A DNA stretch of 64,000 bases from contig JAADHC010000022.1 in NCBI GenBank assembly GCA_013152085.1, positions 64,345 to 128,344 of the forward strand. The letters run 5' to 3'. Under the pieces are notes generated by a model, which was not told the origin of the DNA, did not search any database, and worked only from the letters and a program-made list of their open reading frames with translations. This document shows, piece after piece, positions 9,920-39,343 of the stretch. The stretch's first letter is position 1. Each line of letters begins with the position of its first letter. The position numbers and the translations under genes are program-made. Origin of the DNA: Chlorobiota bacterium. GTDB taxonomy: Bacteria; Bacteroidota; Bacteroidia; Bacteroidales; VadinHA17.

Positions 9920-9930
9920 GAATCAGCGAA

Positions 9931-10611
9931 TTATATTTCCACTTTTTGTAAGGATGTTCCGGTATAGTCGTATAAAATGGGTTTTCCTGTGGGAATTTCC
10001 AGACCCAGGACCTCAGCTTCGGTGAGGTTTTCCAGGTACATGACAATCGAACGCAGGCTGTTGCCATGTGCTGCTACAAAAACCTCCTGATTCTCTTTAA
10101 GCCGGGGTAGGATGTTGTCCTTGAAAAAGGGGATGGTCCTGGCTGCAGTGTCTTTCAGACTCTCACCGTTTGGCGGGGGGACATCATAACTCCGGCGCCA
10201 CAGATGTACCTGTTCATCCCCATACTGTTCAGCCGTTTTGGCTTTATTTTTTCCCTGGAGTTCACCATAGTATCGCTCGTTAAGATGCCAGTCACGGATT
10301 ACCGGTATAACAGCTTGTTCCATATTGTCATCATAAATTTTCGCCCATGCACTTTCCTTTCCCTCTTCATTATGAATGATTACCGGTAAGCGGTCACTTT
10401 GGTTGTATGCCATGCAGATCATAGCCGTTTCCATTGCCCTGACCAGTGTTGATGTGAAAATGATATCAAAGGAGAAATCCTGCAGCTGTTCCCCTGCCTT
10501 TTTAGCTTCGGTAATGCCCTGCGTTGAGAGCGGAACATCTACCCATCCCGTAAAAACATTCATTTTGTTCCATACGGATTCTCCGTGTCGGAGTAATACG
10601 AGTTTTGCCAT
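9931..10611 (-). CDS. gpmA: 2,3-bisphosphoglycerate-dependent phosphoglycerate mutase
   Basis: 226 aa. Catalytic LLRHGESVWN motif near the N-terminus and HGNSLR near the C-terminus. Confidence 0.9.
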   Translation of the reverse strand: MAKLVLLRHGESVWNKMNVFTGWVDVPLSTQGITEAKKAGEQLQDFSFDIIFTSTLVRAMETAMICMAYNQSDRLPVIIHNEEGKESAWAKIYDDNMEQAVIPVIRDWHLNERYYGELQGKNKAKTAEQYGDEQVHLWRRSYDVPPPNGESLKDTAARTIPFFKDNILPRLKENQEVFVAAHGNSLRSIVMYLENLTEAEVLGLEIPTGKPILYDYTGTSLQKVEI

Positions 10612-13232: not shown

Positions 13233-13443
13233 TTTTATGAAACGAACATGAACTGGGCGAAGCGATATCAAGAATGAAATGAATAAAATATTTTGCATGA
13301 ATAATTAGTAAAATATTTTAAACGTTTGAAAAATATAAAAAAACTTTTTGCCCGTTCGGAAGATGTTTGTGTGTTTGATGATAGAGAATCCTGGAAATAA
13401 ACCCGGAAGATTCAGCGGCTGGAAAACACATCCTTTATCCTTC

Positions 13444-28953: not shown

Positions 28954-30540
28954 TTATCCGGTTTTTATTTTTCTTACCGTATCAATAACGGTTCCGTCAA
29001 CCCATTTTATGACAGCCACCGGCTGGTCTTCAAATTCAGGCTTATCAGGAATCCCGCAGATCGAATCGGCCATATCTTTTAGCTCTGCCATGGTTTTTAG
29101 CGGTAATCCTGCCTGACGGGCTTTCCCCAGAAGATCTTTACGCCGCGGGTTTACTGCTATACCACGTTCTGTCACCACAACATCAATCAGTTCTCCCGGC
29201 CCGCACAAGGTAGTTACCTGATCGACAATAATGGGTATGCGGTCCCGGAATAAAGGAACAGGTAAAATAACGGTTTTTGAAAAAAGACAATTTTGCCATC
29301 CTCCGATACCATGAAGCAGGTATCCGTCCGAATGAGTAACAACATTGGCATTAAAATCAAGATCAACTTCTGTAGCTCCGAGAATGACAACATCAACCAT
29401 TCCCGCAAAATTTCCTTTACTGTGGTAGTTATAGGATGTAAAAGGACTGGTCCAGGTATGGTGTGGATTCTCAGCCATTGAGCGTATTCCTTCAAGGTCG
29501 AAAGTTTGTCCGTCCAGGATATACTCAATCATCCCTTCTTCAAGCATGGACACCAGGTATTTGTTGCTGCCACCTCGGGCAAAACGGGCTTTGATCCCCT
29601 TCTTACGCATGATCCGGGCAAAATAATCACTCACAGCCAGAGAGGTGCCTCCGGCGCCGGTCTGGAACGAAAATCCGTCATGAATGATTCCTGTGGCATC
29701 GCAAAACTGAGCGGTTAGTTCAGCCAGATACAGCCGGTCCGGACTGCGTGTGATGCGTGTGGTTCCGGAAATGATTTTTTCAGGATCTCCCAGTTTTTCT
29801 ATTTCTACGGTATAGTCTACATAGTTTCCCTGAATTTGCCAGGGGACACAAGGGAAAGGAACCATATGATCAGTCACCACGATTACCTTGTCGGCATACT
29901 GCGAATCTGCCAGAGCAAATCCCAACAGGCCTGTGGCCGAGGGTCCTTCAAGTCCGTTGGCATTCCCAAACGGATCAGCCTTCCCGGCTCCGATCACTGC
30001 AATATCAATGTGTACTTCCCCGTCCTGTACCGCCTGATACCGGCCGCCATGTGAACGCAGTACCCCAATCCCTTTCATTTTTCCTTCGGAGGTAAACCTA
30101 CCCAAAGGACCGTTCATACTTCCTTCAATATGATGAATGGTCCCGTCTTCGAGATAGGGGATCAGGTGTTCATGACAGGGAAACGATGCAGAAGGGAACC
30201 AGCGTAGGTTTTTAATACCCAGTTCATGGGCAATATCAAAGATCATGTTGGCAAGAAAATCACCGTTACGGAAATGGTGATGGGTAGATATGGTCATGCC
30301 ATCATGTAACCCGGATTTGATCAGTGCTTCCTTCAGGCTTACTACCTGCTTGTTTCCGTCTGCCGGAAAATCTTTGCAACTGGGGATAGGTGGGCCGTAT
30401 TTCCGGCCTTTGGGTAAATATTTTCCTATCCCCTGGTATGGAATGACAGGATGGCCATTAACCTCTGACGGAACCTTCCGGCCGGCGGCATTTTCAATCC
30501 ATTTCCGGTTGTTTTTATTCATTATTGTCAGCTTTTTCAT
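28954..30540 (-). CDS. citF: Citrate lyase alpha subunit (citrate CoA-transferase)
   Basis: 528 aa, with the length and N-terminal pattern (..NAAGRKVPSEVNG..PYQG..) typical of CitF. Overlaps the upstream citDE gene by 26 nt. Confidence 0.8.
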   Translation of the reverse strand: MKKLTIMNKNNRKWIENAAGRKVPSEVNGHPVIPYQGIGKYLPKGRKYGPPIPSCKDFPADGNKQVVSLKEALIKSGLHDGMTISTHHHFRNGDFLANMIFDIAHELGIKNLRWFPSASFPCHEHLIPYLEDGTIHHIEGSMNGPLGRFTSEGKMKGIGVLRSHGGRYQAVQDGEVHIDIAVIGAGKADPFGNANGLEGPSATGLLGFALADSQYADKVIVVTDHMVPFPCVPWQIQGNYVDYTVEIEKLGDPEKIISGTTRITRSPDRLYLAELTAQFCDATGIIHDGFSFQTGAGGTSLAVSDYFARIMRKKGIKARFARGGSNKYLVSMLEEGMIEYILDGQTFDLEGIRSMAENPHHTWTSPFTSYNYHSKGNFAGMVDVVILGATEVDLDFNANVVTHSDGYLLHGIGGWQNCLFSKTVILPVPLFRDRIPIIVDQVTTLCGPGELIDVVVTERGIAVNPRRKDLLGKARQAGLPLKTMAELKDMADSICGIPDKPEFEDQPVAVIKWVDGTVIDTVRKIKTG

Positions 30541-31756
30541 GTGTTACCGGTAAGAATTCCAACTCCATAGCTTTTGCCAATTCCAGGATATGCAGTGCTC
30601 TTTGAACCACCGGCGGATCGATCATTTTTGTTCCCAGCGAAACCACACCCAGCCCTTTCTCCCTCGCTTCATCATAAGCCTTTATGATTCGTTTTGCTTT
30701 ATCAATTTCTGCAGGAGAAGGGGCAAAACCTTCATGGATTGCCCTGATCTGACGGGGATGAATACATCCCATACCTTCAAAGCCCATGGCTTTTGACCGT
30801 TGTACGGTTTTCAGCAATCCTTCCATATCCGAAACATCGGAAAACACCGAGTCGATAGGCTGGATGCCTGCGGCTACACAGGCATTAACCATTCTGCTTC
30901 TTGCCCAGAGTGTTTCGTTCCCTTCGGATGTGCGGGTAACACCAAGGTCAGCAGTCAGGTCTTCCAGCCCGATAGCCATCGCTACGATCCGGCCGGATGA
31001 CATTGCGATCGAATATGCATTTTCAATTCCTTTAGCCGTTTCGAGTATAGGCATAAAGTATACGGATTGACCGGTATTGTGTTTAACCGGAATTTTATCC
31101 ACAAGAGTATCCACCTCAGTGATCTGATCCGGATCTTCGGCTTTCGGAATGAGAATGACATGAACATTGTTCGGAATAACTTCCTTCAGGTCTTCAGCTC
31201 CCAGTGGTAGCGGATTGATTCTGACCATCCTTTCAGCACCATAAAAATCCAGTGCCCGCAAAGCATTTCGAACCAGCAGGCGGGCTTCAGTTTTTTTTTC
31301 CGGGGCAACAGAATCTTCAAGGTCAAGGATGATACCATTGGGTTTGTGGATTCCTGCGTTAAGCATCAACGCAGGTGAATTACCGGGCAGGTATAACCGG
31401 GATAGCCTGAATCGTTCGGGACCGGTGGAATATAGATTTTGAGTCAACATCTCCGGTAAAAACTTTTGTGAAGTTGACGAAATTTTTTGCACTGCCGCCT
31501 CCAACCGGGCCATAATCACAAAATCCAGGGCACCGGAATCTGTGATTTGAACCCGGGCATCTGTCAGGTTGTAAAAATTCATCTGTTTGGAAACCAATGC
31601 GCGGATATGCCGGCCAAACATGCTGTTAACCTTGGATCTTAAATCAATCACGAGGCCTTTTCCGGTACCGGTTTCTATCTGCACATGGCAATCAGACCTG
31701 ACTTTTTCACCTCTGTTGCCTGCTTCCGTTACCTTTTTCCGGGTTGCCTTTTCCAT
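30515..31756 (-). CDS. citDE: Fused citrate lyase acyl carrier protein (CitD, aa ~1-95) and beta subunit / citryl-CoA lyase (CitE, aa ~115-413)
   Basis: The N-terminus aligns by eye to E. coli CitD (AGTLESGDVMIRI vs AGNRGEKVRSDCHVQI; DDKGALDCILRARLEALL vs TDSGALDFVIMARLEAAV). The rest is HpcH/CitE-like (SRLYLPGNSPALM..., LDLEDSVAP, AIGLEDLTADLG). Confidence 0.75.
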   Translation of the reverse strand: MEKATRKKVTEAGNRGEKVRSDCHVQIETGTGKGLVIDLRSKVNSMFGRHIRALVSKQMNFYNLTDARVQITDSGALDFVIMARLEAAVQKISSTSQKFLPEMLTQNLYSTGPERFRLSRLYLPGNSPALMLNAGIHKPNGIILDLEDSVAPEKKTEARLLVRNALRALDFYGAERMVRINPLPLGAEDLKEVIPNNVHVILIPKAEDPDQITEVDTLVDKIPVKHNTGQSVYFMPILETAKGIENAYSIAMSSGRIVAMAIGLEDLTADLGVTRTSEGNETLWARSRMVNACVAAGIQPIDSVFSDVSDMEGLLKTVQRSKAMGFEGMGCIHPRQIRAIHEGFAPSPAEIDKAKRIIKAYDEAREKGLGVVSLGTKMIDPPVVQRALHILELAKAMELEFLPVTHEKADNNE

Positions 31757-31786
31757 ATATTGAATAAATTAATTTTAAGAAAATGA

Positions 31787-32212
31787 TCAGCTTTGATCTT
31801 CATCCGCACCGGCAGGTTTACATAACTCAATGAGTACCCCTGAAGTGGCGGAAGGGTGCAGGAACGCAATTTCCATCTGATCGGAACCGGGCCGGGGTCG
31901 CTTGTCAATCAGCCTGACCCCTTTTTTATCCAGCTCGGAAAGCGTCCGGGTAAGTTCACCGGTTTTGAAGGCGAGGTGATGTATTCCTTCGCCTCGTTTC
32001 TCAATAAAACGGGCTACGGGTCCTTCCGGGTCTGTGGATTCCAATAACTCAATTTTTACTTCCCCTATCCGGTAAAAAGCTGTCTTTACTTTCTGGTCCT
32101 CAACCGTTTCTGTCTTGTAACAACGGAGTCCCAGAATCCCTTCATAAAAGGTACGGGCTGTTTCCAGATTCCTGACAGCTATCCCTATATGTTCGATCTT
32201 TTTAATGTCCAT
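31787..32212 (-). CDS. Methylmalonyl-CoA epimerase (VOC/glyoxalase fold)
   Basis: 141 aa. IEHIGIAVRNLETARTFYEGILGL, KIELLESTDPEGPVARFIEKRGEGIHHLAF. Confidence 0.8.
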   Translation of the reverse strand: MDIKKIEHIGIAVRNLETARTFYEGILGLRCYKTETVEDQKVKTAFYRIGEVKIELLESTDPEGPVARFIEKRGEGIHHLAFKTGELTRTLSELDKKGVRLIDKRPRPGSDQMEIAFLHPSATSGVLIELCKPAGADEDQS

Positions 32213-32624
32213 ACACGGTTATTTTTTGTAAAAATACACACCTAATCCTGATTCTCCTAATGATATTTTCCGGTTGTTGTTAATCTCCCGGAAATGTTAT
32301 AGAATGAGGCATATACAAAAAAAATGTATTCGTTCATTCCATATTTTGATGATATATCTCATTATTAAATGGTTAAATATATCATTGCTTTTCCTGAAAC
32401 ATATTGAAACAGATGTGTTATTTTTAAACTAAATATTGAATTAAAATATTTTATTAACTTTCAGGTCAGTTTATTAACCATACCTGTAGGATTGATAAGA
32501 ATGTTATATGGTCATCCGGTAATAGATCGGACCGGTAAAAATAAAATATGCTTTATTAAACAATCGGATTATGCCTGTGAAATAAGATAAAAACAACTAA
32601 AATTTAAACTTAAAATTAAATGTT

Positions 32625-33581
32625 ATGGAAACCAAAACTGCCACAACTTTTTCTGTGTTGAAGGAGACTGAAGTTCAGTATCTCCAATCGATCCTCGCTA
32701 AAGGTGGACCCGACCTGGAAGATTATCCGGTATTTGAGGAGTATGTTAACAAGCTCAATGATCAGGGAATCGAAGAGTTACGTATATTACTGAAACCGAT
32801 TTTGAATAAAGAGAATATGATCGGCTACGGTTATGTAAAACCTTACGGTTATGCCGGGGATTTTCATGTTATTGACATGATCTACCAGGTAAAAACCAGT
32901 GATGATCCCCGCTATCACAAATGGGATAAATGGTATCATGAGCAGCATGCTCCACAGGCTGTAAGAAACCGGAAAGAATTTTTCCTGAACCTGTGTGCCG
33001 AACTGGATGCCAAAAATGACAAACCCAAGGAAATGTTGATCCTGGGAAGTGGTCCGGCGGCGGATGTTTTTGAATATCTGGAAAGTAATCCGGACTCAAG
33101 GATTCATTTCGATTTGCTTGACCTTGACCAACGGGCGATCGATTATGCCCGGGAAAAAAATCTGAAGTATCTAGATCGACTCAACTTTATCCGTATAAAT
33201 GTTTTGCGTTTCAAAACGCACAAGTTTTATGACACGATCTGGAGTGCCGGGTTGTTTGATTACTTCAAGGAAAAACATTTTGTCTATTTGGTCAACAAAT
33301 ACAGGGAATTTATTGCCGAAGACGGGGAAATGGTTATTGGTAATTTTGCCGACGGTAATCCCTCTGTTAAATTAATGCATGTATTATGCGACTGGAATCT
33401 CAATCTCCGCTCGAAGGAGGATTTGACGCATTACGCTGTTGCGGCAGGTGCCGACCCGTCATCAATCAGGGTTGATAGTGAGCCGCTGGGCGTGAACCTT
33501 TTCCTGAGAATCAAAAACAATAAAAATTCTTTCAAAACTGCTGAAAACTTCATATCTTGGCTCGAGTTTAACAACAACTAA
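32625..33581 (+). CDS. Class I SAM-dependent methyltransferase with an N-terminal extension (PhcB-like signal-synthase candidate)
   Basis: 318 aa. Motif I MLILGSGPAADV, then LLDLDQRAI and IWSAGLFDYF. The upstream KPYGYAGDFHVIDMIY and RNRKEFF motifs resemble, from memory, the 3-hydroxy fatty acid methyl ester synthase (PhcB) family. Confidence 0.65.
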   Translation: METKTATTFSVLKETEVQYLQSILAKGGPDLEDYPVFEEYVNKLNDQGIEELRILLKPILNKENMIGYGYVKPYGYAGDFHVIDMIYQVKTSDDPRYHKWDKWYHEQHAPQAVRNRKEFFLNLCAELDAKNDKPKEMLILGSGPAADVFEYLESNPDSRIHFDLLDLDQRAIDYAREKNLKYLDRLNFIRINVLRFKTHKFYDTIWSAGLFDYFKEKHFVYLVNKYREFIAEDGEMVIGNFADGNPSVKLMHVLCDWNLNLRSKEDLTHYAVAAGADPSSIRVDSEPLGVNLFLRIKNNKNSFKTAENFISWLEFNNN

Positions 33582-33586
33582 TATGG

Positions 33587-35569
33587 ATGTGGGATTCGGT
33601 CAGGAGGAAAGATAAACCTTCTGAGGATGGGGCTCCCAGTTCCCTGGGAATGAAGCTCCATCCTCTTTCTTTGCGCTTTATTGACGATCAGGCTTATCTG
33701 GAAAAAGAATACAGGGAAACCTATTTTCGTGAGTCGGTTGGTCAGTTGCGTTTTGCCATTTTACTTTCACTGATCTTCTATACGCTGTTTGCCGGCCTGG
33801 ACGTGGCTGTTGCACAGTCTTTTAAGAAAGAACTCTGGCTGATTCGTTTCGCTTTTGTCGCTCCGGCAATGATCATCTTCGTTGCCATCTCTTATCTTCC
33901 CTGGTTTAAAAGATACTGGCAAACCTTGCTTGGCCTCATTATGTATCTGGCCGGATTAGGAATTGTATTGATGATTTTTTATGTCTCGAAGATTGAGGTC
34001 TATTCCTATTACGCCGGACTGCTGCTTATTTTTATCGTTGGTTATACTTTTATCCGGGCGCGGATCATTTCCGCTACATTGGCAGGTTGGACATTGGTAC
34101 TTACTTACGAAATTGTAGCTTTTTTCTTTACAGATACTCCGCTGCAAAACCTGATCAATAATAATTTCTTCTTTATTTCTGCCAATATTATCGGGATGAT
34201 GATCTGTTATTATCTCGACCGAACCAACAGGAAAGACTTTTTTATGCGGAAACTTCTCCAGATTGAACAGGAGAAGGTAAAAGCTGCCAATGAGGTTCTT
34301 GAGCAAAAAGTCGAAGAACGCACCCGTGAACTATCCGAGACAAACGTCGAACTTAAAAAAGAAATTGAACTTCGTAAACAATACGAAGCGGAACGGGCAA
34401 AACTGGAAGCCCAGCTGTTTCAGCTTCAGAAAATGGAAACTATCGGGACCCTGGCAGGTGGTATCGCTCACGACTTTAACAATATCCTGACCCCTATTCT
34501 CGGGTATACAGAAATGGCATTGGAGGAAATAGAAGAGGATAATACCCTTCGGTTTGATATAGAACAAATAAACCATGCAGCACAACGGGCCAAAGACCTT
34601 GTGAAACAGATCCTGACCTTCAGCCGCCAGGTAGATGTTGAAAAGAAACCTTTAAGACTGGATCAGATCATTAATGAGGTGTTAAACCTGGTCAGGGCTT
34701 CCCTCCCCAGAACGATTGAGATACAGACCGACCTGGATCCGTATTGCGGAACCGTCATGGCTGATCCTACCCAGATGCACCAGGTGTTGATGAACCTCTG
34801 TACCAACGCTGCCCATGCCATGAAAGATAATGGCGGAATTCTTGAATTACGCCTTCATGAAGAAGATATTGACTCAGCCAGGTCAAAGGATTTAAATAAT
34901 GTCTCCCCCGGTAAGTATGCAGTATTCACGGTAAGAGACACCGGCCATGGCATGGATACCCAAACCATGCAGCGGATTTTTGAACCCTTTTTCACCAAGA
35001 AGGAAGTAGGAGTTGGTGCAGGCCTTGGCCTTTCGGTTGTCCATGGAATTATCAATAGTTACCGGGGCACTATAACCGTTCATAGTAAACCTGGCGATGG
35101 AACCATCTTTATGATCTATTTACCGCAGTTTGCCGCAGAAAGTGAAGTGGAAATTTCTGAAGAATTTATTAAAGAAGGCATGGAACATATCATGTTTGTG
35201 GATGACGAGGAAGAAGTAACCTTTATGGGGAAAAAGATGCTCGAGAGCCTCGGTTATTCTGTAACCGTGAAAACCGATGGTCACAGGGCCTATCAGGAGT
35301 TTAAAAAACACCCCGATGAGTATGACCTTCTGGTTACCGATCAGACGATGCCCGGTGTTCTGGGTACTGACCTGGCTTCAAAATTCAGGCAACTGAATCC
35401 GAAACTGAAAGTGATTATTATTACCGGAACACATAATTCGGTAAATGAGCAGATGCTTGAAGATTCTAAAATTGATGAATTACTTTTAAAACCGCTAAAA
35501 ATTAGCGAATTTAGCAAGGTCATCCGGAAAGTCCTGGATGAAAATAAAAATGTAAATAATAACAATTGA
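33587..35569 (+). CDS. Membrane-embedded hybrid sensor histidine kinase (about 6 TM, coiled coil, HisKA, HATPase, REC)
   Basis: 660 aa. Six hydrophobic helices between aa ~55 and 215 with minimal loops. H-box GGIAHDFNNILTPILGY, DTGHGMD, GAGLGLSVVHG, REC (IMFVDDEEEV...LLVTDQTMPG). Starts 5 nt after the methyltransferase stop. Confidence 0.9.
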   Translation: MWDSVRRKDKPSEDGAPSSLGMKLHPLSLRFIDDQAYLEKEYRETYFRESVGQLRFAILLSLIFYTLFAGLDVAVAQSFKKELWLIRFAFVAPAMIIFVAISYLPWFKRYWQTLLGLIMYLAGLGIVLMIFYVSKIEVYSYYAGLLLIFIVGYTFIRARIISATLAGWTLVLTYEIVAFFFTDTPLQNLINNNFFFISANIIGMMICYYLDRTNRKDFFMRKLLQIEQEKVKAANEVLEQKVEERTRELSETNVELKKEIELRKQYEAERAKLEAQLFQLQKMETIGTLAGGIAHDFNNILTPILGYTEMALEEIEEDNTLRFDIEQINHAAQRAKDLVKQILTFSRQVDVEKKPLRLDQIINEVLNLVRASLPRTIEIQTDLDPYCGTVMADPTQMHQVLMNLCTNAAHAMKDNGGILELRLHEEDIDSARSKDLNNVSPGKYAVFTVRDTGHGMDTQTMQRIFEPFFTKKEVGVGAGLGLSVVHGIINSYRGTITVHSKPGDGTIFMIYLPQFAAESEVEISEEFIKEGMEHIMFVDDEEEVTFMGKKMLESLGYSVTVKTDGHRAYQEFKKHPDEYDLLVTDQTMPGVLGTDLASKFRQLNPKLKVIIITGTHNSVNEQMLEDSKIDELLLKPLKISEFSKVIRKVLDENKNVNNNN

Positions 35570-35573
35570 CATT

Positions 35574-35939
35574 ATGGCCAGAATTATTGTAATAGATGAT
35601 GAACCGTATATCCTCCTGATGTTGAAAAAAATGCTTGAGAAAGAAGGACATGAGGTGGAAATGGCAACTAACGGTGTTGAAGGTTCCGAACTTTTTGAGC
35701 AAAATCCTGCCGACCTGATTATTACGGATATTGTGATGCCTGAAAAAGAAGGTCTCGAAACAATAATGGATTTACGGGTTAAAAATCCACAATTAAAGAT
35801 CATTGCCATTTCGGGCGGTGGCAGGGTAGATTCGAGAGAATACCTGAATTCCGCGCAATTGCTCGGTGCAAATAAAACCATTCAGAAACCGTTTAAAAAG
35901 GATGAGATCATCCAGGCGGTCAGAGAACTGTTGAAGTAA
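35574..35939 (+). CDS. Stand-alone response regulator receiver (CheY-like)
   Basis: 121 aa. RIIVIDDEPYIL, LIITDIVMPEKEG, IIAISGG, KPF. No output domain. Starts 4 nt after the kinase stop. Confidence 0.9.
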   Translation: MARIIVIDDEPYILLMLKKMLEKEGHEVEMATNGVEGSELFEQNPADLIITDIVMPEKEGLETIMDLRVKNPQLKIIAISGGGRVDSREYLNSAQLLGANKTIQKPFKKDEIIQAVRELLK

Positions 35940-36005
35940 CCCGTAATTATTTGTTTTTACTTCCGGATTATGCCGGAGAACAGTTCCGGTTGATATCGGT
36001 TTTTA

Positions 36006-36052: not shown

Positions 36053-39000
36053 ATGAAAAGATTTTTCTTAATATGCCTTGTCAGTGTATTCTGGCTTGGT
36101 TTACAGGCTGCTGATACCGGTGAGGCCCGCTTGATGAGATTTCCGGATATTTATGGAAACCAGATCGTTTTTTCCTATGCCGGAGATCTTTACCTTGTTC
36201 CTTCCGATGGTGGCGTTGCCCGCCGGCTTACATCGTCGGTGGGATATGAATCCTTTCCCCGGTTTTCACCCGACGGTAAATACATTGCATTTACCGGTCA
36301 GTATGACGGAAATACTGAAGTTTTTCGTATCCCTTCATCCGGAGGGGAACCACAGCGGCTTACCGTTACGGCTACACTGGGAAGAGATGATATCGGCGAC
36401 CGGATGGGACCGAATAATATTGTAATGGATTGGACCCCTGACGGAAAATATATTGTTTATCGATCGCGAAAACAATCTTATAATTCTTTTGTCGGACAGC
36501 TTTTCAAGGTCCCTGCTGACGGAGGAATGTCAGAAGAGATCCCGATCTCCAAAGGAGGATTTTGCAGCTTTTCTCCCGACGGAAACCGGATGGCCTTTAA
36601 CTGGGTATTCCGCGAATTCCGTACCTGGAAATATTATCAGGGAGGTATGGCAGATGATATCCGTATCGTGGATTTTAACAAGGGTACGGTAATAAAAATT
36701 ACCGACAATCCGCACCAGGATATCATTCCCATGTGGATAGGCCGTACGATCTATTATCTTTCTGACCGTGACAGGACAATGAACCTGTTTGCTTACAATC
36801 TGGATACTAAAGAGACGAAAAAAGTTACCGACTTTACGGATTATGATATCAAATTTCCCGGATTTGACCGGCAGTATGTGGTTTTTGAAAAAGGCGGCTA
36901 CATCTATAAGTATGATGTGGAAAACGGAAATACGGCGCAGGTGCATATCCGTATCGCCAATGATATCGAATGGAGCAGATCCGAATGGAAAGATGCATCA
37001 AAAATGATAAGAAGTGCCGACCTGTCACGGAACGGTGAACGTGTGCTTTTCGGAGCACGTGGCGATATCTTTTCTGTTCCTGCAAAACATGGAATTACAC
37101 TGAATCTGACAAAAAGCTCAGGAGTACATGAGCGGGAAGCCACATTCTCACCAGATGGCAGATATATGGCCTATCTTTCTGATCAGTCGGGTGAGTATGA
37201 AATTTATATGCGCCCTGCAGATGGCAGCGGAACCCCGGTTCAGATTACCTCGAATACAAAAACATACATTTTCAATCTGGCATGGTCACCGGATTCAAAA
37301 AAGATACTTTTTAATGATAAGAAACAAACGTTGAAGTATGTTGATATCGGGACAAAAAAAGTAACGATGGTTGATCAGTCGGACGAAGCTCCCTGGTTTA
37401 GTTTTGACTGGTCTCCCGACAGCCGCTGGATTACCTATACAAAAGCGGAGAAAAGGATGACCCGTATCCGGCTGTATAATCTCGAAACAGGAAAATCATA
37501 CATCCTTACCGATAGCTGGTATAGTTCAGGGAATCCTGTTTTCAGTACCGATGGTAAATATATCCTCTTTACCTCGGCACGGGATTTTAATCCGATATAC
37601 AGCCAGACAGAATGGAACCATGCGTATGTCGATATGAGCAGGATCTATATGATCCTCCTGTCCAAAGATACACCTTCCCCTTTTGCACCTGAGAATGATG
37701 TCATAGAAGTAAATAATGTAAAACCAACTGCCAGGGCACCGGAGAAAAGCAAACCCGGAAACAAGAAAAAATCAACCTCAGAAACCAAGGATACGGGAAA
37801 AATAATAATAGACATTGACGGTATCAACGAGAGGGTTGTCGGTTTGCCGGTCAAACCTTCCAATTATTTTGGTATAAATGGTGTAAATGATAAAGTGTAT
37901 TTCCTTGAACGTTCGTCTACCGGCCGGGACGGAGCGCGTTTTGCTTTTTTTGATCTTAAAAAGAAAAAGGAAACGGAACTGGGGCAGGGGATGAGTTACG
38001 GTTTATCTGCCAACCATAAAAAAATGCTGGTCAGACAGAAAAACCGTTATGCGGTGATCAACCTGCCCTCTTCGAAAATTTCACTGGAAGAAACCGTCGA
38101 CCTCTCCGGCATGAAAGTAAAAGTAGACCTGCACGCCGAATGGAAGCAGATATTTAACGAGAGTTGGCGTCAGATGCGGGATTTCTTTTATGCACCTAAT
38201 ATGCATGGTGTTGACTGGCCTGCTATGCACGATAAATATGCCGTTTTGCTCCCTTATGTAAATCATCGTTCCGATCTTACCTATATTATCGGTGAAATGG
38301 TAGGCGAACTGAGTATCGGGCATTCTTATGTGATCAATGGTGAAGCTCCGAAACCTGAGCGGATAGCTCTTGGTTTGCTGGGTGCTAAAGTAAGCCGGAC
38401 ACCGGAGGGATGGTTCAGAATTGACCATATCCTCCCCGGAGCCAACTGGAGCCGTCAGCTGCGGTCGCCCTTAACGGAAATAGGAGTTAATGTGAAAGAG
38501 GGAGACTATATCCTGGCTGTTAACGGCCGGAATGTGAAGGAGAAAACGGACATTTTCAAAACATTAATCGGCCAGGCCGGCAAAACAGTAGAACTTACGG
38601 TGAATAACCAACCCGACATGAACGGAAGCAGAAACGTACTGGTCCGTCCTCTCAGGGATGAATCGGCCCTTTACTATTACGAATGGGTAGAGAATAATAT
38701 CCGTAAAGTTAGCGAGGCCACTGACGGGAAAGTGGGATACATCCATATTCCGGATATGGGCGTTGACGGGCTTAATGAGTTTGTAAAACATTACTATCCG
38801 CAACTGCAGAAAAAAGGCTTGATCATTGATGTCCGTGGTAACGGAGGCGGGAATGTTTCGCCTATGATCATTGAGCGGTTGATGCGTACCATAACCTACA
38901 TGACGATGCATACAGGGGAGAAACAGGGAGATCCCAATCCGGTAGGTACCTTTGTCGGACCGAAGGTTACTCTGCTGGATAAGTATTCGGCTTCGGACGG

Positions 39001-39343
39001 AGACCTGTTTCCTTACCGGTTTAAATACAAAAAACTCGGGAAACTGATCGGTACACGTTCCTGGGGTGGCGTAGTTGGTTACAGCGGTTCCATTTCATTG
39101 ATTGACGGCGGTTCGCTCATTACACCTTCCTATGCACCGTATGCTGCTGACGGAAGCGGCTGGATCATTGAAGGGCATGGTGTTGACCCGGATATTTTTA
39201 TTGAAAATGATCCGGTACGGGAATATAAAGGGATTGATGATCAACTAAATAAGGCGATTGAAGTGATTAAGGATGAGTTACGGAAAAATCCGCCCAAACT
39301 GCCATCTATTCCTCCATTTCCCGACAAAAGCGGCAAAAAATAG
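36053..39343 (+). CDS. Tricorn protease homolog (S41 peptidase with TolB-like beta-propellers and a PDZ domain)
   Basis: 1096 aa. Signal peptide, LMRFPDIYGNQIVFSYAGDLYLVP start typical of tricorn, repeated PD40-like SPDG motifs, C-terminal S41 core (DVRGNGGG, SASDGD). Confidence 0.85.
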   Translation: MKRFFLICLVSVFWLGLQAADTGEARLMRFPDIYGNQIVFSYAGDLYLVPSDGGVARRLTSSVGYESFPRFSPDGKYIAFTGQYDGNTEVFRIPSSGGEPQRLTVTATLGRDDIGDRMGPNNIVMDWTPDGKYIVYRSRKQSYNSFVGQLFKVPADGGMSEEIPISKGGFCSFSPDGNRMAFNWVFREFRTWKYYQGGMADDIRIVDFNKGTVIKITDNPHQDIIPMWIGRTIYYLSDRDRTMNLFAYNLDTKETKKVTDFTDYDIKFPGFDRQYVVFEKGGYIYKYDVENGNTAQVHIRIANDIEWSRSEWKDASKMIRSADLSRNGERVLFGARGDIFSVPAKHGITLNLTKSSGVHEREATFSPDGRYMAYLSDQSGEYEIYMRPADGSGTPVQITSNTKTYIFNLAWSPDSKKILFNDKKQTLKYVDIGTKKVTMVDQSDEAPWFSFDWSPDSRWITYTKAEKRMTRIRLYNLETGKSYILTDSWYSSGNPVFSTDGKYILFTSARDFNPIYSQTEWNHAYVDMSRIYMILLSKDTPSPFAPENDVIEVNNVKPTARAPEKSKPGNKKKSTSETKDTGKIIIDIDGINERVVGLPVKPSNYFGINGVNDKVYFLERSSTGRDGARFAFFDLKKKKETELGQGMSYGLSANHKKMLVRQKNRYAVINLPSSKISLEETVDLSGMKVKVDLHAEWKQIFNESWRQMRDFFYAPNMHGVDWPAMHDKYAVLLPYVNHRSDLTYIIGEMVGELSIGHSYVINGEAPKPERIALGLLGAKVSRTPEGWFRIDHILPGANWSRQLRSPLTEIGVNVKEGDYILAVNGRNVKEKTDIFKTLIGQAGKTVELTVNNQPDMNGSRNVLVRPLRDESALYYYEWVENNIRKVSEATDGKVGYIHIPDMGVDGLNEFVKHYYPQLQKKGLIIDVRGNGGGNVSPMIIERLMRTITYMTMHTGEKQGDPNPVGTFVGPKVTLLDKYSASDGDLFPYRFKYKKLGKLIGTRSWGGVVGYSGSISLIDGGSLITPSYAPYAADGSGWIIEGHGVDPDIFIENDPVREYKGIDDQLNKAIEVIKDELRKNPPKLPSIPPFPDKSGKK

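Follow-up and report, generated by a model that had tools for sequence, protein, structure and literature searches.

Does a member of the Bacteroidales encode, side by side in one compact cassette, both an enzyme that makes a methylated lipophilic signal and the membrane kinase that senses it? The question is raised by a locus in a 64,000-nt stretch of contig JAADHC010000022.1 (GenBank assembly GCA_013152085.1, positions 64,345 to 128,344), which we refer to as the window. The locus comprises three plus-strand open reading frames (ORFs), g1, g2 and g3, and our ORF calls agree with an earlier sequence-only reading that had described three co-oriented genes with gaps of 5 nt (33582-33586) and 4 nt (35570-35573). 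The same reading had compared them with the signal synthase and sensor encoded by the phcBSRQ operon of Ralstonia, a comparison that was borne out at the level of homology, as both partners, g1 and g2, proved to be related to PhcB and PhcS. Judged by sequence and by analogy, the cassette is probably, though far from certainly, a distant and rearranged relative of the PhcB-PhcS pair that would act as a unit for making and sensing a methylated lipophilic signal.

In Ralstonia, PhcB is needed for the synthesis of 3-hydroxypalmitic acid methyl ester (3-OH PAME) or 3-hydroxymyristic acid methyl ester (3-OH MAME) (PMC7694676, PMC13532016), and PhcS is a kinase ‘thought to perceive’ these molecules (PMC13532016). 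PhcB has a length of 464-468 aa and its operon is named phcBSRQ (PMC7694676), while phc homologues are also present in Cupriavidus and Paraburkholderia (PMC6989110). Our PhcB reference was reached stepwise, from a plasmid of Paraburkholderia graminis (found by tblastn of plasmids) via a Cupriavidus locus to a contig of Ralstonia pseudosolanacearum. The plasmid operon encodes a methyltransferase of 468 aa, a kinase of 445 aa and two receiver proteins, of 134 and 344 aa, and its methyltransferase shares 64-92% identity with 452-522-aa (mostly 460-470-aa) proteins of Paraburkholderia, Cupriavidus, Massilia, Pseudoduganella and Janthinobacterium. At the Cupriavidus locus the layout is canonical: a methyltransferase (463 aa) is followed by a MASE8-HisKA-HATPase protein (443 aa), a protein with a receiver domain (REC) in front of HisKA and HATPase (381 aa) and a REC protein (332 aa). 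On the Ralstonia contig (L099), finally, the gene for a MASE8 kinase comes immediately after that for a 467-aa PhcB, which shares 70% identity with the methyltransferase of Cupriavidus. On this contig, a gene for a 345-aa response regulator (L099 2950-3987) lies directly upstream of phcB and has no counterpart beside the Bacteroidota cassette; it may correspond to PrhX or PhcX (PMC10788593, PMC10653808).

Employing BLASTP, g1 residues 56-293 were aligned with residues 204-458 of Ralstonia pseudosolanacearum PhcB (25% identity, 264 aa, E 2e-21), and alignments were likewise obtained with PhcB of Cupriavidus and of Paraburkholderia. When the two families were compared by hhalign, residues 55-294 of g1 matched residues 202-458 of PhcB over 237 columns with a probability of 99.85% (E 9e-31). 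The sequence-only reading had proposed such a profile comparison as a check on its analogy, and g1 did not group with an unrelated methyltransferase family. All motifs that this reading had pointed out in g1, which it had assigned to the class I S-adenosylmethionine (SAM)-dependent methyltransferases, were located, namely KPYGYAGDF (72-80), LILGSGPAADV (138-148), LLDLD (164-168) and AGLFDYF (208-214). The first of them, singled out earlier as a feature of the N-terminal extension of g1, falls inside the PhcB alignment, where it is common to both proteins and reads KPLGYAGDY in PhcB. In a nine-member alignment of five lineages, with Bacteroidota, cyanobacterial, Burkholderiales and Rhizobiaceae members and including PhcB of Ralstonia, Cupriavidus and Paraburkholderia, 18 residues are invariant: KPxGYxGD, RxR, a glycine of motif I, D166, AGLxDY, G234, N240 and WxLxxR. 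The PhcB-family motifs KPxGYxGD, RxR, AGLxDY, N and WxLxxR are invariant in 26 Bacteroidota members as well. The comparisons support homology between g1 and the catalytic part of PhcB, with inclusion of the lid helices upstream of the Rossmann core. The PhcB family, which KEGG names ‘EF 3-OH-PAME biosynthesis protein’, is the sole strong family relationship of this protein.

Pfam and NCBIfam report nothing but generic class I methyltransferase matches for g1, all of them sub-threshold; the weak Pfam matches (PF08242 and PF13649, residues 138-234) agree with the class I assignment. In the AlphaFold (AF2) model of g1, which is a confident one (predicted local distance difference test, pLDDT, 87.8; predicted template modelling score, pTM, 0.85), helices of the N-terminal part (residues ~14-129) form a bundle against a Rossmann core (~130-298). 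Foldseek placed small-molecule and natural-product methyltransferases nearest to this model at 11-16% identity, the closest solved folds being SibL, DsyB, an uncharacterised Bordetella protein (3ocj) and the C-methyltransferase domain of the citrinin polyketide synthase (PKS). Since these matches are generic and of such low identity, the substrate of g1 cannot be read from the structure. Searched by sequence, the PDB contains no entry that matches g1 at E < 0.05, and no solved structure is a close relative. In a search of 5.8 billion proteins, 1854 homologues of g1 were found; many Bacteroidota homologues with a length of ~300 aa and ~50% identity carry the Joint Genome Institute (JGI) name ‘extracellular factor (EF) 3-hydroxypalmitic acid methyl ester biosynthesis protein’, and PhcB and PhcS names have already been attached to some homologues by automatic pipelines. 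A protein identical to g1 is labelled by NCBI as coming from a ‘Chlorobi bacterium’ metagenome-assembled genome (MAG). As all close relatives (45-67% identity) are from Bacteroidales- or Bacteroidota-labelled MAGs, this label is probably an artefact of binning or taxonomy. A further relative was encountered on the IncFII plasmid NZ_CP134637.1 of Enterobacter ludwigii (locus L098 5001-5666), where the methyltransferase (MT) domain at the C-terminal end of a type I PKS is 30% identical to g1 residues 55-267; because of this match, the PhcB-like fold including its lid can be said to serve as a PKS domain, too.

The second partner, g2, was described in the sequence-only reading as a hybrid kinase with six closely packed transmembrane (TM) helices and minimal loops, and both hydropathy and Pfam agree. 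A hydropathy scan yielded six hydrophobic segments (~54-73, 83-103, 110-132, 138-156, 160-180 and 190-209) joined by loops of at most 10 aa, after which follow a coiled-coil linker, HisKA (288-347, with His295), HATPase (393-514) and a receiver domain (535-646, with Asp585). The Pfam E-values of the latter three are 5e-12, 1e-21 and 2e-17, respectively, while the first ~260 residues are without a reported domain. Within the TM part, R87, G145 and a YSYYAGL motif are conserved. For this N-terminal part, an alignment of 81 Bacteroidota kinase N-termini was compared with one of 14 PhcS N-termini by hhalign. In global mode, residues 22-235 of g2 matched residues 1-203 of PhcS over 200 columns (97.9%, E 3e-12), and local mode gave 96.4% (E 1e-9). 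A hidden Markov model (HMM) of the TM domain, built from the N-terminal 235 columns of the 81 kinases and judged against 226 background ORFs and 200 shuffles per target, assigned 38-41 bits (E ~1e-12) to the Paraburkholderia PhcS-like kinase and 12.6 bits (E 7e-4) to Cupriavidus PhcS; the best unrelated ORF reached E 0.23 and the shuffle maximum was 8.1 bits. Precomputed Pfam assignments (PF20968.4) call MASE8 on g2 orthologues as well as on Cupriavidus and Ralstonia PhcS, and for this domain no ligand is documented in the searchable literature. Used as a database query, the PhcS N-terminus retrieved 22 proteins, mostly partial, and led to the Ralstonia locus. Homology between the six-TM domain of g2 and the sensor domain of PhcS is supported by these profile comparisons, and the analogy drawn earlier goes further than had been proposed, as the sensor itself is homologous (96-98% in hhalign).

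Independently of PhcS, the six-TM domains of g2, of the kinases at loci L001, L007 and L009 and of P0361 show weak matches to Pfam AC_N (PF16214), at profile positions ~182-387. AC_N is the membrane region of eukaryotic adenylyl cyclases. The matches have E-values from 0.16 to 0.004 (best among 75 relatives, 4e-7), and those listed score 11.5-16.8 bits against a cut-off of 30.9 bits; being weak and sporadic, yet in the same register, they could reflect either a bias in composition or a real remote relationship.

Does the pairing of the two genes extend beyond the window? With each species represented by a single genome, a scan recovered a relative in at least 580 genomes; we examined the best 80 loci, which are from Bacteroidales- or Bacteroidota-labelled MAGs, bar one that is labelled Ignavibacterium. 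Gene order was assessed wherever the methyltransferase gene was followed by 2.8 kb of sequence or more, which was so at 68 loci. Fifty of them show the full triad in the order of the window (type 1), with the receiver gene directly after the kinase gene in every case, and the remaining 18 show a second layout (type 2). The latter, hosted by Draconibacterium, Prolixibacteraceae and Maribellus, runs from a non-hybrid TM kinase (496 aa) through a receiver (131 aa), a REC-HisKA_2-HATPase protein (359 aa) with the architecture of PhcR and a REC-LytTR protein (259 aa) to the methyltransferase, which is followed by a gene of the FAA-hydrolase family (L062 3205-8491 in a Draconibacterium MAG and 17 similar loci). 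The LytTR DNA-binding regulator of this layout hints at an output by transcription. Both Draconibacterium and Maribellus have cultured species. A TM-domain kinase is present at all type-2 loci with enough upstream sequence (15 of 15), so that methyltransferase and TM-domain kinase are linked at every one of the 65 testable loci, each of which represents a different species; in six metagenome contexts, too, methyltransferase, TM hybrid kinase and receiver follow one another in this order without exception. At one contig (L006 6934-8758) the kinase was called as two ORFs, a 296-aa MASE8 protein and a 318-aa HisKA-HATPase-REC protein with an overlap of 23 nt, which is probably due to a frameshift or an assembly error.

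The three-gene order recurs far above chance expectation. The flanks vary, with a glyoxalase gene in 6 of 46 and a tricorn protease gene in 1 of 41 type-1 loci, and the flank synteny of the window is kept only in its closest relatives. As the triad is kept while its flanks vary, conservation is a property of the cassette and not of the neighbourhood. The sequence-only reading had named co-occurrence of the three genes across Bacteroidota as a check, and the triad is syntenic at 50 of 50 type-1 loci with differing flanks. These counts bear directly on the view that g1 is a housekeeping or secondary-metabolism methyltransferase that happens to share a transcript with an unrelated two-component system. 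Such adjacency without coupling would suit the generic domain matches of g1 and the homologous MT domain inside a type I PKS, yet we regard it as scarcely credible: the same TM domain accompanies the enzyme at 65 of 65 testable loci in two gene orders and among unconserved flanks, each partner has its homologue in a pair known to be coupled genetically, and three more lineages show the pairing too, there with different output domains.

A plasmid of Pseudanabaena carries the gene for a methyltransferase homologue of 280 aa tail-to-tail with a kinase gene, and the TM-domain HMM matches the N-terminus of this kinase (E 2e-26). In Rhizobium, Sinorhizobium and Roseateles (L096, L097 and L013), ~345-aa relatives of the methyltransferase are encoded head-to-head with GGDEF-EAL proteins, the N-terminal multi-TM regions of which score a modest 21.5, 13.9 and 7.0 bits against the HMM (shuffle maxima 5.8, 4.2 and 4.3 bits); as a trio, these N-termini gave 82% over 160 columns in hhalign (E 1e-5). 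In Roseateles, a PAS-GGDEF gene comes after the methyltransferase gene. Across these cases the output module is exchanged, whereas the enzyme family and the membrane domain recur together, a pattern to be expected if the one makes a ligand and the other receives it. Going further, we tentatively suggest, with rather more doubt than conviction, that the PhcB/PhcS-like pair is an ancient modular set of autoinducer synthase and receptor distributed well beyond Ralstonia, and that it may serve environmental Bacteroidales as a dedicated quorum-sensing system. On this view, the pair is present in at least 580 species-level genomes and found again in Cyanobacteria, and the Rhizobiaceae receptor would drive cyclic di-GMP (c-di-GMP) enzymes.

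But, is the methylated product really a signal? The linkage of a methyltransferase to an intramembrane sensor and the small-molecule methyltransferase fold would also fit if the six-TM kinase detected a lipophilic acid, exogenous or accumulating in the membrane, which g1 then esterified for neutralisation or export, without any signalling of cell density. A divergent function of this kind is compatible with the g1 group having no PhcB N-terminal region and with the lack of a local transcriptional output. However, PhcB/PhcS, the one homologous pair that has been characterised, consists of a synthase for a signal and the sensor for it (PMC7694676, PMC13532016), a substrate-induced detoxification operon would be expected to include a DNA-binding regulator, of which type-1 loci have none, and the recurrence with c-di-GMP outputs resembles signalling rather than detoxification. 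We therefore consider this sense-and-modify role unlikely.

Alternatively, g1 might act on the signalling proteins themselves and, like CheR in adaptation, methylate the kinase or a receiver in order to tune signalling instead of making a ligand. The enzyme is always encoded beside signalling proteins and has an N-terminal helical domain as found in CheR, and two homologues match the SAM-binding domain of CheR (PF01739) below threshold (E 4e-4 for L062 and 1e-3 for L011); these matches, however, span just 42-60 residues of the generic Rossmann core, and g1 itself has none. Moreover, no layout contains a methyl-accepting domain of the type found in methyl-accepting chemotaxis proteins or a CheB-like demethylase, the nearest folds are natural-product methyltransferases and the product of the homologous PhcB is a diffusible ester, which makes a CheR-like role very improbable.

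For the favoured make-and-sense unit, we propose the following sequence of events. By homology, g1 would use SAM to methylate a lipid-derived small molecule; following the analogy with PhcB, a 3-hydroxy fatty acid would be methylated at its carboxyl group to give a membrane-permeant methyl ester. This compound would be bound within the membrane by the six-TM domain of g2, and binding would shift the balance between kinase and phosphatase activity at His295. The phosphoryl group may then pass from His295 to Asp585 of the fused receiver and/or to Asp52 of g3, all three being residues observed in the proteins. The action of g3 is probably exerted via protein-protein contacts or is that of a phosphate sink, and an unlinked histidine phosphotransfer (Hpt) protein or regulator probably completes the path. 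The features expected of a hybrid kinase and of a two-component system are in place in g2 and g3: the phospho-acceptor histidine, the N/G boxes of the HATPase and the DD, D, T/S and K residues of the receiver, among them Asp585 in g2 and Asp52, Ser80 and Lys105 in g3. In line with its earlier description as a stand-alone receiver, g3 (121 aa) has the Pfam receiver domain alone and no output domain. As the N-terminal domain of PhcB has no equivalent in g1, a methyl ester different from both 3-OH PAME and 3-OH MAME may serve as the signal, for instance one made from the 3-hydroxy fatty acids with iso-branches that are typical of this phylum.

Several observations weigh against this reading. On the side of the enzyme, identity to PhcB amounts to only 21-25% and g1 is without the full PhcB architecture, as PhcB residues 1-201 are without a counterpart in g1 and the first 54 residues of g1 without one in PhcB. 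With the N-terminal ~200 residues of PhcB missing, substrate and regulation of g1 may differ from those of PhcB; an adaptive R22C mutation maps to this very region (PMC6989110). On the side of the sensor, direct ligand binding by PhcS is described in tentative terms even in Ralstonia (PMC13532016), and the local Pfam MASE8 model (PF20968.2) is silent on g2 even at E <= 10. This model also misses g2 orthologues and Cupriavidus PhcS and reports only the Paraburkholderia protein (E 0.0044); because PF20968.2 and PF20968.4 disagree, we relied on our own HMM and on hhalign with shuffle controls. The six-TM domain is promiscuous, occurring in 2211 representative clusters at E <= 1e-3 and in many architectures, and thus need not always bind the product of a methyltransferase. 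Among 75 six-TM clusters, the partner domains were HisKA (47), REC (30), PAS (23), SpoIIE (3), GGDEF (2) and HD (1). On the side of the output, the receivers share 21-28% identity with those of PhcR and PhcQ, a generic likeness that does not mark specific orthologues, and the locus is without a PhcA-like regulator, an Hpt protein or a DNA-binding output, the last of which the sequence-only reading had also noted to be absent. Finally, the support for the Bacteroidota group is at the level of sequences and models.

Upstream of g1 lies a 412-bp divergent intergenic leader that presumably holds the promoter of the cassette (all features are listed in the table). It had been called both the longest and the most AT-rich intergenic region of the window. 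The latter part holds, as its guanine-cytosine (GC) content of 0.26 is the lowest among the window gaps (window, 0.44); the former does not, as crude ORF calling leaves 456 bp (9920-10375) without an ORF of at least 90 aa and the leader is thus second in length. The palindrome TAAAATATTTTA reported for the leader is indeed present (32442-32453), and a second exact copy is found elsewhere in the window (13309-13320). As a candidate operator it was rejected, since it was found in the window alone and in none of the upstream regions of 52 related cassettes. These upstream regions did not show any enriched 8-mer or 10-mer beyond their AT-rich background. We found no Rfam family (riboswitch or known RNA) and no conserved small upstream ORF or peptide in the leader, and no Rfam family at gathering score anywhere in the window. 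Regular expressions for Bacteroidota-type promoters (TAnnTTTG, and TTTG 17-23 nt before TAnnTT[T/A]G) had no match in the leader, and a sigma-70 scan of it gave generic matches only. Just 3' of g3, a terminator-like hairpin (CCGGTTGATATCGG, followed by TTTTT) likely marks the 3' end of the operon.

Table. Features of the cassette locus, with positions in the window.
Feature	Position	Strand	Basis or remark
412-bp AT-rich divergent intergenic region, presumed promoter site	32213..32624	+	GC 0.26, contains TAAAATATTTTA
g1: 318-aa PhcB-like class I SAM-dependent methyltransferase	32625..33581	+	homology, AF2 model
g1 part homologous to PhcB 202-458: residues 55-294	32787-33506	+	hhalign
g2: 660-aa hybrid histidine kinase, six-TM sensor	33587..35569	+	Pfam, hydropathy, HMM/hhalign
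g2 PhcS-like (MASE8-type) six-TM sensor, residues 22-235	33650-34291	+	hhalign, HMM
g3: 121-aa stand-alone CheY-like receiver	35574..35939	+	Pfam
Terminator-like hairpin CCGGTTGATATCGG then TTTTT	35986..36004	+	consensus scan

Beyond the leader, the minus strand (28954-32212) encodes a 141-aa protein of the glyoxalase family together with subunits of citrate lyase, one CitE-like and one CitF-like; on the plus strand, the gene at 36053-39343 specifies a tricorn-like protease of 1096 aa. A link of these neighbours to the cassette was considered and dismissed, as the glyoxalase and citrate-lyase-like genes occur in just 6-8 of 46 loci and the tricorn gene in 1 of 41.

To our knowledge, no dedicated pair of autoinducer synthase and receptor is well established in Bacteroidota, and no paper on Phc-like systems in this phylum was found in the searchable literature. 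If a methyl-ester signal is indeed produced, the cassette would be a directly testable candidate for a cell-cell signalling pair in the abundant Bacteroidales of sediments, wetlands and gut-associated habitats, and the phc paradigm would be widened from one lineage of plant pathogens to several phyla. A ligand class would thereby be assigned to MASE8, a sensor domain coupled to kinases, c-di-GMP enzymes and phosphatases, and comparative material would become available for the question of how PhcS perceives its ligand.

In comparison with the Ralstonia phcBSRQ operon, the cassette shares the tightly packed gene order of methyltransferase, TM kinase and receiver proteins, with a receiver protein without a DNA-binding domain as its last gene product. 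The homology of its methyltransferase to PhcB spans residues ~202-458 of the latter and takes in the family motifs, the sensor of its kinase is homologous to the six-TM (MASE8) domain of PhcS, and its type-2 relatives possess a PhcR-like REC-kinase. Apart from the host, a member of the Bacteroidales instead of the Burkholderiales, there are several differences. With its 318 aa, g1 does not have the N-terminal ~200 aa of PhcB, and g2 is a hybrid with a fused receiver that is absent from PhcS. Neither a separate PhcR (REC-HisKA-HATPase) nor PhcQ (REC plus a C-terminal region of ~200 aa) is encoded downstream in the window, where the 121-aa single-domain g3 stands in contrast to a PhcQ of ~332-345 aa with its C-terminal extension, and PhcA was not found locally. 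The cassette thus falls short of full membership in the phcBSRQ group for four reasons: there is no equivalent of the PhcB N-terminus, the kinase is of the hybrid type, a fused and a minimal receiver take the place of PhcR and PhcQ, and PhcA is not found at the locus. With regard to MASE8 (PF20968), g2 orthologues and PhcS are assigned to the same family by precomputed Pfam, while g2 is not reported by PF20968.2. A second comparison concerns CqsA/CqsS of Vibrio and LqsA/LqsS of Legionella, in which the gene for an alpha-hydroxyketone synthase lies beside that for a kinase whose six TM helices, joined by very short loops, perceive a lipophilic autoinducer; like g2, CqsS is a hybrid kinase. The synthases CqsA and LqsA are pyridoxal phosphate (PLP)-dependent acyl-CoA transferases in contrast to the SAM methyltransferase of the cassette, and no relationship in sequence to CqsS or LqsS was seen, although no search was aimed at one. 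The systems are alike by design: in each of them, a putative or established synthase is encoded next to an intramembrane sensor following the same synthase-sensor logic.

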